From NCBI RefSeq assembly GCF_055900595.2, contig NZ_CM148325.1: a DNA stretch of 64,000 nucleotides, one strand, 5' to 3'. A program made the translations under genes and the position numbers. The notes below the pieces were generated by a model. That model did no database searches. It was not told where the DNA came from and worked only from the letters and a program-made list of their open reading frames with translations. Shown piece after piece: positions 8,829 through 10,757 of this stretch. Every line of letters begins with the position of its first letter. Position 1 is the first letter of the stretch.

Positions 8829-9758
8829 TTACGCCGGCATCGCCTCACGCGGGATAATCGCGCCGCGATACTGAATAACGGTACTTGCGGTCAGGTGCCC
8901 GCGTTTCGCCGCATTTTCCGCACTGCCGCCCGTCAAACGTACCGCCAGATAACCGGCACTGAAAGAGTCGCCAGCTGCGGTGGTATCGATCACTTTTTCT
9001 TTCGGCAGTTTCACCGCCGGAACATCCACTAACCCTTCGCCAGCAATGGACACCAGGCAAGAATCCGCCCCGCGTTTCACCACCACTTCTTTCACGCCCG
9101 CGTTATGGGTGCGCGCAATGACGTCTTCCACCGGCTGTTGACCCCACAGCGCGTCTTCATCGTCCAGCGTCAGGAAGGCGATATCCGTGCATTCCAGCAT
9201 TTGCTGGTACACCTGCTGTGTCTCTTCTTTGCTGGCCCACAGGCGCGGACGATAGTTATTGTCGAAAATTACTTTTCCGCCGTTGGCGCGGCATTCGCGC
9301 AGCAGGGAAAGCAGCTTTTCGCGGCTGGTCGGGCTTAAGATCGCCAGGCTAATCCCGCTCAGGTAGAGATAATCGAAACTCGCCAGCTCTTCGCAAATCG
9401 CCGCGGATTGCTCACTCTCCAGCCAGAATTTGGCGGCGGCTTCGTTACGCCAGTAGTAGAACGTACGTTCGCCGGTGCTGTCGGTTTCAATGTAGTAAAG
9501 GCCCGGCAGACGGTTTTCCATCCGTTGGGTCAGGGAAGTATCAACGTTCTCGCCGTGCCAGGCGTCCAGCATCTGCTGGCTAAAACTGTCCGTTCCCAGC
9601 GCCGTTACGTAATGAACGGTTAATGCCGCAGGATCGACCTGACGGGCGATATAGACGGAAGTGTTCAGGGTATCGCCGCCGAAACCGCGCTTAACGTCCG
9701 CGCCTTTCTCGGAAAGCTCAATCATGCATTCGCCAATCACGGCAATCTTTTTGGACAT
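8829..9758 (-). CDS. kdgK: 2-dehydro-3-deoxygluconokinase KdgK, 309 aa
   Basis: Translation from MSKKIAVIGECMIELSEKGADVKRGFGGDTLNT recognised as KdgK (PfkB sugar kinase family). The six-frame ORF runs 116 codons further upstream; start trimmed to the conserved Met using the ORF-track frame. Confidence 0.9.
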   Translation of the reverse strand: MSKKIAVIGECMIELSEKGADVKRGFGGDTLNTSVYIARQVDPAALTVHYVTALGTDSFSQQMLDAWHGENVDTSLTQRMENRLPGLYYIETDSTGERTFYYWRNEAAAKFWLESEQSAAICEELASFDYLYLSGISLAILSPTSREKLLSLLRECRANGGKVIFDNNYRPRLWASKEETQQVYQQMLECTDIAFLTLDDEDALWGQQPVEDVIARTHNAGVKEVVVKRGADSCLVSIAGEGLVDVPAVKLPKEKVIDTTAAGDSFSAGYLAVRLTGGSAENAAKRGHLTASTVIQYRGAIIPREAMPA

Positions 9759-9824
9759 AGTCGTGAACCTGATCTGTAAAAAATTAGCGTTAGTTTGCGC
9801 TGTGGTGGTTTGCTGGTCAACCAT

Positions 9825-9843
9825 ATTAAAACAGTGTTCCATT
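9825..9843. promoter_or_regulatory. Candidate KdgR operator in the kdgK-pdeH divergent intergenic region
   Basis: ATTAAAACAGTGTTCCATT resembles the KdgR palindromic consensus (AAATGAAACA-N-TGTTTCATTT) as I recall it; kdgK is a KdgR regulon member. Inference from motif similarity only. Confidence 0.4.
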
Positions 9844-9914
9844 ATTTTTTTGAGCCAGAACGTATTCCTGAAAGATTCCGTTGTGGCGTGGGGAAATTTA
9901 CCCCGGCCAGGCGG

Positions 9915-9941
9915 TAAAGTTCTGCCTTTGCGCGCCGATAA
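9915..9941 (+). promoter_or_regulatory. Sigma-28 (FliA) class 3 flagellar promoter upstream of pdeH
   Basis: TAAAGTTC, 11-nt spacer, GCCGATAA is a near-perfect match to the FliA consensus TAAAGTTT-N11-GCCGATAA, about 50 bp upstream of the pdeH ATG. Confidence 0.7.
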
Positions 9942-9989
9942 TCTTTGTCGAGTCCGGGCAGCATCACTTTTAAACACAGGACATCTTTG

Positions 9990-10757
9990 ATGATAAGGCA
10001 GGTTATCCAGCGAATAAGCAACCCTGAAGCAAGCATCGAGAGCTTGCAGGAACGGCGTTTTTGGTTGCAGTGTGAGCGTGCTTACACCTGGCAGCCGATC
10101 TATCAAACCTGCGGACGGTTAATGGCCGTGGAGCTATTAACGGTGGTCACGCATCCCTTGAACCCTTCGCAACGCCTGCCACCGGATCGCTATTTTACTG
10201 AAATCACCGTCAGCCATCGGATGGAGGTTGTGAAAGAGCAGATTGATTTGCTGGCGCAAAAAGCCGACTTCTTTGTAGAGCACGACCTGCTGGCATCGGT
10301 CAATATTGATGGTCCTACGCTCATCGCCCTGCGTCAGCAACCAAAAATCCTGCGCCAGATTGAGCGTCTTCCCTGGCTGCGTTTCGAACTGGTGGAACAC
10401 ATCCGTCTGCCGAAAGATTCAACCTTTGCCTCGATGTGTGAATTTGGCCCGCTGTGGCTGGATGATTTTGGCACCGGGATGGCAAATTTCTCTGCGCTAA
10501 GTGAAGTGCGTTATGACTACATCAAAATCGCGCGAGAACTGTTTGTGATGCTGCGTCAGTCACCGGAAGGACGCACACTCTTTTCTCAGCTTTTACATCT
10601 CATGAATCGCTATTGTCGCGGGGTGATTGTTGAGGGCGTAGAAACGCCGGAAGAGTGGCGTGATGTTCAGAACTCGCCCGCATTCGCCGCACAAGGCTGG
10701 TTTCTTTCACGCCCGGCACCGATAGAAACGCTGAATTCGGCAGTTCTGGCGCTATAA
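9990..10757 (+). CDS. pdeH: c-di-GMP phosphodiesterase PdeH (YhjH), EAL domain, 255 aa
   Basis: Translation from MIRQVIQRISNPEASIESLQERRFWLQCERAY recognised as YhjH; the six-frame ORF starts 15 codons upstream. Confidence 0.93.
   Translation: MIRQVIQRISNPEASIESLQERRFWLQCERAYTWQPIYQTCGRLMAVELLTVVTHPLNPSQRLPPDRYFTEITVSHRMEVVKEQIDLLAQKADFFVEHDLLASVNIDGPTLIALRQQPKILRQIERLPWLRFELVEHIRLPKDSTFASMCEFGPLWLDDFGTGMANFSALSEVRYDYIKIARELFVMLRQSPEGRTLFSQLLHLMNRYCRGVIVEGVETPEEWRDVQNSPAFAAQGWFLSRPAPIETLNSAVLAL

Follow-up and report, generated by a model that had tools for sequence, protein, structure and literature searches.

A KdgR-type operator and a FliA promoter in the divergent kdgK-pdeH intergenic region of Escherichia coli

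The kdgK-pdeH locus and its described counterparts

The gene pdeH (yhjH) is the main c-di-GMP phosphodiesterase gene, and the class 3 (FliA) promoter of yhjH in E. coli K-12 was reportedly first described by Ko and Park in 2000. ChIP-seq in K-12 placed a FliA peak at yhjH (fold-above-threshold 67), and deleting fliA lowered the RNA-seq value of the gene from 511 to 2 (PMC4183435). Microarrays gave values for yhjH of −9.6-fold when fliA was deleted and +1.9-fold when FliA was induced (Zhao et al. 2007, PMC1935009). As a fusion of −280..+51, a span that takes in the operator described below, pdeH serves as a reporter of sigma-FliA activity (Klauck et al. 2018, PMC6119863).

The neighboring gene, kdgK, is described as a target of KdgR repression with a KdgR box of its own (PMC6958661, PMC4784465, PMC6892915). 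Its mRNA was elevated in an E. coli kdgR mutant as seen by Northern blot (PMC6958661), it was derepressed by deletion of kdgR in Salmonella and induced by 2-keto-3-deoxygluconate (KDG) (PMC4784465), and it was raised in an evolved strain that had lost kdgR (PMC6892915). In addition, kdgK is among the genomic SELEX targets of PlaR (YiaJ), an IclR paralogue; in gel shifts with PlaR, all twelve target probes tried gave complexes, and the box ATnTGAAACnnnGTTCAnTT was derived (Shimada et al. 2019, PMC6958661). The same study proposed co-regulation by KdgR and PlaR at shared boxes and reported mutual regulation of plaR and kdgR (PMC6958661).

The DNA analyzed here, a stretch of 64 kb that we call the window (positions are counted from its first letter), belongs to an E. 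coli chromosome. Of 5426 complete E. coli genomes, 5421 contain the segment 9700-10050 at an identity of at least 95%; the match is perfect (100%) in strain Z0117EC0005 and 98.9% in K-12 MG1655, where the flanking genes are annotated as kdgK and pdeH. Positions 9759-9989 are the entire intergenic region (231 bp) between the divergent genes kdgK (minus strand) and pdeH (plus strand), whose features are collected in Table 1. The ATG of kdgK lies at 9758..9756 on the minus strand, the sequence beginning MSKKIAVIGECM, and pdeH starts with the ATG at 9990, the protein beginning MIRQVIQRI. An Rfam search of 9650-10100 at E<=1 returned no RNA family. Both regulatory assignments discussed below are already established for the same locus in E. 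coli K-12, and the window carries the standard alleles. Overall, the 231-bp region is very probably best explained as two independent promoters placed back to back and firing divergently, a KdgR/PlaR-controlled one for kdgK and a FliA-driven one for pdeH.

Table 1. Features of the kdgK-pdeH intergenic region and flanking genes, in window coordinates.
Feature	Position	Strand	Basis and remarks
kdgK CDS (2-dehydro-3-deoxygluconokinase)	8829..9758	-	ORF and translation; RefSeq annotation of matching E. coli DNA (identical or nearly so)
Candidate kdgK sigma-70 -10, CAAACT	9792..9797	-	predicted start near 9785
Candidate kdgK sigma-70 -35, TTGACC	9815..9820	-	conserved columns; 4 bp from operator
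KdgR-type (IclR-family) palindrome ATTAAAACAGTGTTCCATT	9825..9843		core TTAAAAC-N3-GTTCC; pattern, PWM, conservation, literature
T7 run next to the operator, toward pdeH	9845..9851		columns at least 90% conserved across genera
FliA -35 element TAAAGTTC	9915..9922	+	pattern, PWM, conservation; same element as K-12 yhjH ChIP-seq motif TAAAGTTCTGCCCTTACGCGCCGATAAT
FliA -10 element GCCGATAA	9934..9941	+	pattern, PWM, conservation; spacer always 11 bp
Conserved block TTGTCGAGTCC around predicted pdeH start	9945..9955	+	conserved columns
pdeH Shine-Dalgarno region ACAGGA	9976..9981	+	GG invariant, ACAGGA conserved to at least 90%; 8 nt before ATG 9990
pdeH (yhjH) CDS, EAL-domain c-di-GMP phosphodiesterase	9990..10757	+	ORF and translation; annotation

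The locus was compared across enterobacteria by a scan for PdeH with one genome per species, which gave 80 loci from about 25 genera, including Escherichia, Citrobacter, Salmonella, Enterobacter, Lelliottia, Leclercia, Kosakonia, Atlantibacter, Franconibacter, Siccibacter and Pseudocitrobacter. Upstream DNA was available for 79 loci, and 73 upstream regions were aligned. Wherever enough flanking sequence was present (77 of 77 loci), kdgK was the divergent upstream neighbor of pdeH. The only invariant intergenic columns among the 73 aligned sequences were TAAAGTT.T, GCCGATAA and the GG of the Shine-Dalgarno sequence. Blocks of high information, computed from 32 sequences less than 90% identical to one another, spanned 9823-9838, 9844-9853, 9911-9925, 9932-9944 and 9976-9983, and the operator and the FliA motif were the sharpest phylogenetic footprints of the intergenic region.

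Two further observations concern variation within and near E. coli. The KdgK of one Escherichia locus (L002, from a record titled E. coli SCPM-O-B-8794) shares 98.7% identity with the window protein, while PdeH is only about 92% identical in the Escherichia loci L002, L003 and L004, and their spacers also differ (operator centre GCC or ACT); among Escherichia lineages, therefore, the kdgK side and the pdeH side of the region have not diverged to the same extent. A small inverted repeat, GGGG-AAATTTA-CCCC, lies at 9890-9904, in the stretch from the operator to the FliA -35 element; it is imperfect in K-12 (GAGG...CCCC), and its conservation does not extend beyond E. coli.

The FliA promoter of pdeH

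An earlier note on this DNA, made from its letters alone, had claimed a FliA promoter facing pdeH, had placed the gene under flagellar class 3 control, and had proposed scans with KdgR and FliA matrices as a check. On the plus strand, TAAAGTTC-N11-GCCGATAA spans 9915-9941 and points to pdeH; compared with TAAAGTTT-N11-GCCGATAA, 15 of the 16 specified bases agree and the spacer has the same 11 bp. At one mismatch or fewer, this was the single match to the FliA pattern in 64 kb, against 0.01 expected. For the matrix scan, a position weight matrix (PWM) was built from the 28-nt motifs of 51 published ChIP-seq sites (Table 2 of Fitzgerald et al. 2014, PMC4183435), with yhjH left out. With this leave-one-out matrix the pdeH site scored 23.8 bits, compared to 14.5 bits for the runner-up in the window and a median of 16.5 bits for the real sites, and it would rank fourth of 52 known FliA sites, with only tar, flgM and motA scoring above it.

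The full FliA motif was found in all 79 loci with upstream DNA, and none of the 73 aligned sequences departed from its elements (TAAAGTT.T and GCCGATAA) or from a spacer of exactly 11 bp. The -10 element ends 48 bp ahead of the pdeH ATG in the window, and this distance was 44-54 bp in 72 of the 73. The promoter also shares with that of K-12 yhjH the -35 element TAAAGTTC, the -10 element GCCGATAA(T), the spacer length of 11 bp, the orientation and the distance to the ATG, and differs from it only by two substitutions within the spacer (CCTTTGCGC here, CCCTTACGC in K-12); as these fall in the non-specific spacer, a functional difference is not expected. The promoter is thus real, given its top matrix score, its conservation, and elements identical to those of a K-12 promoter bound by FliA in ChIP-seq, and the class 3 assignment is borne out by the published FliA binding and FliA-dependent expression of the gene in K-12. 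Unchanged pdeH transcription in a fliA mutant, which the earlier note had named as evidence against its proposal, is contradicted by the published K-12 RNA values, according to which pdeH expression is essentially all-or-none with FliA.

The pdeH transcript is predicted to start at about 9947-9951, giving a leader of about 40 nt. Since our literature search found no mapped transcription start for kdgK or pdeH, both starts, as well as the kdgK promoter described below, are inferred ones. The block TTGTCGAGTCC, directly downstream of the FliA -10 element, reads TTGACGAGTCC in most genera and is strongly conserved (TTGaCGAGTCC). A regulatory RNA structure in the pdeH leader, comprising this block and the Shine-Dalgarno sequence, was considered and rejected: RNAalifold gave no consensus pairs over 31 non-redundant 5' leaders, and the single-sequence fold was no better than that of shuffled sequences (z = +1.16). 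In Citrobacter amalonaticus S646 (locus coordinates 2266-2480), about 190 bp are inserted between the FliA promoter and the pdeH Shine-Dalgarno sequence, so that the -10 element lies 235 bp from the ATG, compared to 44-54 bp elsewhere; this insertion had no significant match in Rfam (best sX9, E = 0.14).

The KdgR-type operator and the candidate kdgK promoter

Boxes of the KdgR regulon, with the consensus AAATGAAACAnTGTTTCATTT (taken as quoted in PMC5559549, from Rodionov et al. 2000/2004), are two-fold symmetric, A/T-rich 19-21-mers upstream of genes of the KDG pathway. The palindrome of the window is of this kind, and the kdgK box of E. coli K-12 is a 19-mer identical to it. It agrees with the consensus at 15 of 20 positions, with a perfect AAACAnTGTT core, and its centre lies 76 bp upstream of the kdgK ATG. 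At two mismatches or fewer it was the sole match to the KdgR pattern in the window, where 0.07 were expected. A symmetrized KdgR matrix was built from three K-12 boxes that we located ourselves upstream of kdgT (AAATAAAACAGCGTTTCAATT, 3 mismatches) and kduI (AAATAAAACAATGTTTCATTT and TAGTGAAACACTGTTTCGTTT, 1 and 3 mismatches); the eda P2 region was left out of the matrix as a poor match to the consensus (8 mismatches). In the scan with this matrix the palindrome ranked first in the window with 21.9 bits, a score reached in none of 100 simulated 64-kb sequences, whose maxima were 13.3 ± 2.5 bits. The palindrome is comparable to the boxes of kdgT and kduI but weaker. Relative to the regulon consensus it has half-sites AAAAC/GTTCC instead of GAAAC/GTTTC, and it lies just upstream of the inferred -35 element and not over the core promoter. 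The second-best match to the matrix, AAATAAACCATTGATTTGTTT at 44807-44827 (19.3 bits), is a near-palindrome within an ORF at 44417..45640 on the minus strand, encoding a 407-aa 'hypothetical protein'; the ORF is covered over at least 80% of its length in 3988 of 5426 genomes, and most matching genomes are only 80-90% identical to it. We rejected this site as a likely chance match, lying as it does inside a strain-variable ORF and having no GAAAC core.

Across the compared genera the operator core TTAAAAC-N3-GTTCC was kept in 77 of 79 loci and was at least 90% conserved, while the central triplet varied freely and took 11 different values. Conserved AAAAC-N3-GTTCC arms around a free triplet are the pattern expected of an IclR-type box, and they fit the PlaR box ATnTGAAACnnnGTTCAnTT, itself an IclR-family palindrome with an unconstrained central triplet. 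The conserved T7 run on the pdeH side of the operator is probably the A/T-rich flank of the KdgR box; it may reflect an extended A/T-rich contact of KdgR or PlaR, or DNA curvature. Our literature search found no KdgR footprint or ChIP at the E. coli kdgK site, and the assignment of the operator to KdgR rests on motif, conservation and mutant expression. On these grounds the KdgR-like palindrome proposed in the earlier note is upheld: it is the sole close match and the top-scoring one, it is conserved, and kdgK is derepressed in kdgR mutants.

Could the two motifs be functionless chance matches to their consensus sequences? When 3 mismatches are allowed, both patterns are common enough, with 0.61 FliA matches expected per window and six KdgR matches counted. 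At the quality observed, however, the expectations drop to the values given above for each motif, and both motifs lead their matrix scans by wide margins and form the sharpest intergenic footprints across about 25 genera, in agreement with the published ChIP-seq and mutant expression data (PMC4183435, PMC6958661). We give an accidental origin of either motif practically no chance; it is already refuted by the conservation and the published in vivo data.

PlaR, which is reported to bind upstream of kdgK (PMC6958661), was not mentioned in the earlier note. The palindrome is a probable PlaR box as well as a KdgR operator. It might even be mainly an operator of PlaR, with the control of kdgK by KdgR exerted elsewhere or indirectly, as the SELEX result, the fit of the free-triplet box ATnTGAAACnnnGTTCAnTT to the conserved arms, and the mutual regulation of plaR and kdgR would allow (PMC6958661). 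However, loss of kdgR alone strongly derepresses kdgK in both E. coli and Salmonella, and KDG induces the gene (PMC6958661, PMC4784465, PMC6892915), the palindrome is the only KdgR-like site in the kdgK-pdeH intergenic region, a matrix made from the boxes of other KdgR targets, kdgT and kduI, ranks it first, and the authors of the PlaR study themselves propose co-regulation at shared boxes (PMC6958661). A palindrome serving mainly PlaR is thus very improbable, and we treat it as a KdgR operator that PlaR appears to share.

A consensus scan of 9650-10100 for sigma-70 promoters and terminators gave nothing at threshold (9/12 for sigma-70), and a promoter candidate for kdgK emerged from phylogenetic footprinting alone. 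On the minus strand, TTGAC[C/G]-N17-CAnA[C/A]T stands at a fixed distance of 4 bp from the operator in 76 of 79 loci. The version in the window, TTGACC-N17-CAAACT, matches the consensus at 8 of 12 positions, with a weak -10 element (3/6), and was missed by the scan because 8/12 is below the threshold. Judged from its conserved position, it is probably the sigma-70 promoter of kdgK. The operator would then be centred near −49 of the predicted kdgK start, that is, upstream of the core promoter and not over it, and because of this position any mode of kdgK repression is only putative. A kdgK promoter lying within the operator itself, with the extended -10 TGTTTTAAT, is disfavored as an alternative, as its TG falls in the variable triplet and is not conserved.

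Relation of the operator to the pdeH promoter

RNA polymerase is predicted to cover about 9765-9840 at the kdgK promoter and about 9895-9970 at the pdeH promoter, and these footprints do not overlap and are about 55 bp apart. The earlier note had suggested that occupancy by KdgR of the shared spacer could affect the pdeH promoter. In one form of this idea, KdgR or PlaR on the palindrome (9825-9843) would alter the activity of the FliA promoter, be it through occlusion, looping or local supercoiling, and the supply of sugar acids would thereby be tied to c-di-GMP and motility. Both elements do lie within one 231-bp spacer whose divergent arrangement is constant, and, although the DNA between them has diverged, 69 of 72 sequences place the operator centre 78-84 bp from the FliA -35 element. 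However, the operator edge (9843) is separated from the FliA -35 element (9915) by 71 bp, the operator centre lies at about −115 from the predicted pdeH start and thus outside the polymerase footprint, and the DNA between the two elements is the least conserved part of the region. The range of spacings exceeds half a helical turn, and in three Pseudocitrobacter loci, where about 30 bp are absent, the distance shrinks to 51 bp; since it varies in this way, there is no constraint on helical phasing, although the length is fairly stable. Expression data argue in the same direction: pdeH is essentially all-or-none with FliA (PMC4183435), and the genes up in a kdgR-deleted strain were kdgT, kdgK, asr, hyi, kduD and kduI, with pdeH not among them (PMC6892915). 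Taken together, the gap, the unconserved intervening DNA and the behavior of pdeH in the kdgR-deleted strain speak against the suggestion, and control of the pdeH promoter from the operator is most unlikely. Even less credence is given to the broader proposal that the pdeH promoter is adjusted across about 115 bp, via supercoiling or looping, by KdgR/PlaR binding or by the act of transcribing kdgK, with the 78-84-bp spacing across about 25 genera reflecting this coupling. If it were true, pectin-derived sugar acids would feed into the c-di-GMP level and motility.

With two independent promoters as the preferred reading, the region would work as follows. On its left side, kdgK would probably be read leftward from the weak sigma-70 promoter TTGACC-N17-CAAACT, KdgR, apparently together with its paralogue PlaR, would block initiation at kdgK from the palindrome abutting the -35 element, and KDG or related effectors would release the repressor and turn kdgK on. 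The control of kdgK by KdgR is published, and the geometry of operator and promoter in this scheme is our inference. On the right side, sigma-28 (FliA) RNA polymerase acts at TAAAGTTC-N11-GCCGATAA to produce pdeH mRNA from the predicted start at about 9947-9951. Once flagella are complete and FlgM has been exported, FliA becomes active and PdeH is made, keeping c-di-GMP low and permitting swimming; this chain from FliA to PdeH has been published for K-12, whose promoter elements are the same as those of the window.

Both the FliA-pdeH link and the control of kdgK by KdgR are established knowledge. The only addition to it would be a demonstrated cross-talk of the sugar-acid repressor with the pdeH promoter, against which the present evidence argues. 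For the biology of E. coli, the sigma-28 promoter of pdeH makes low c-di-GMP follow from a finished flagellum, and thereby favors swimming rather than biofilm formation.
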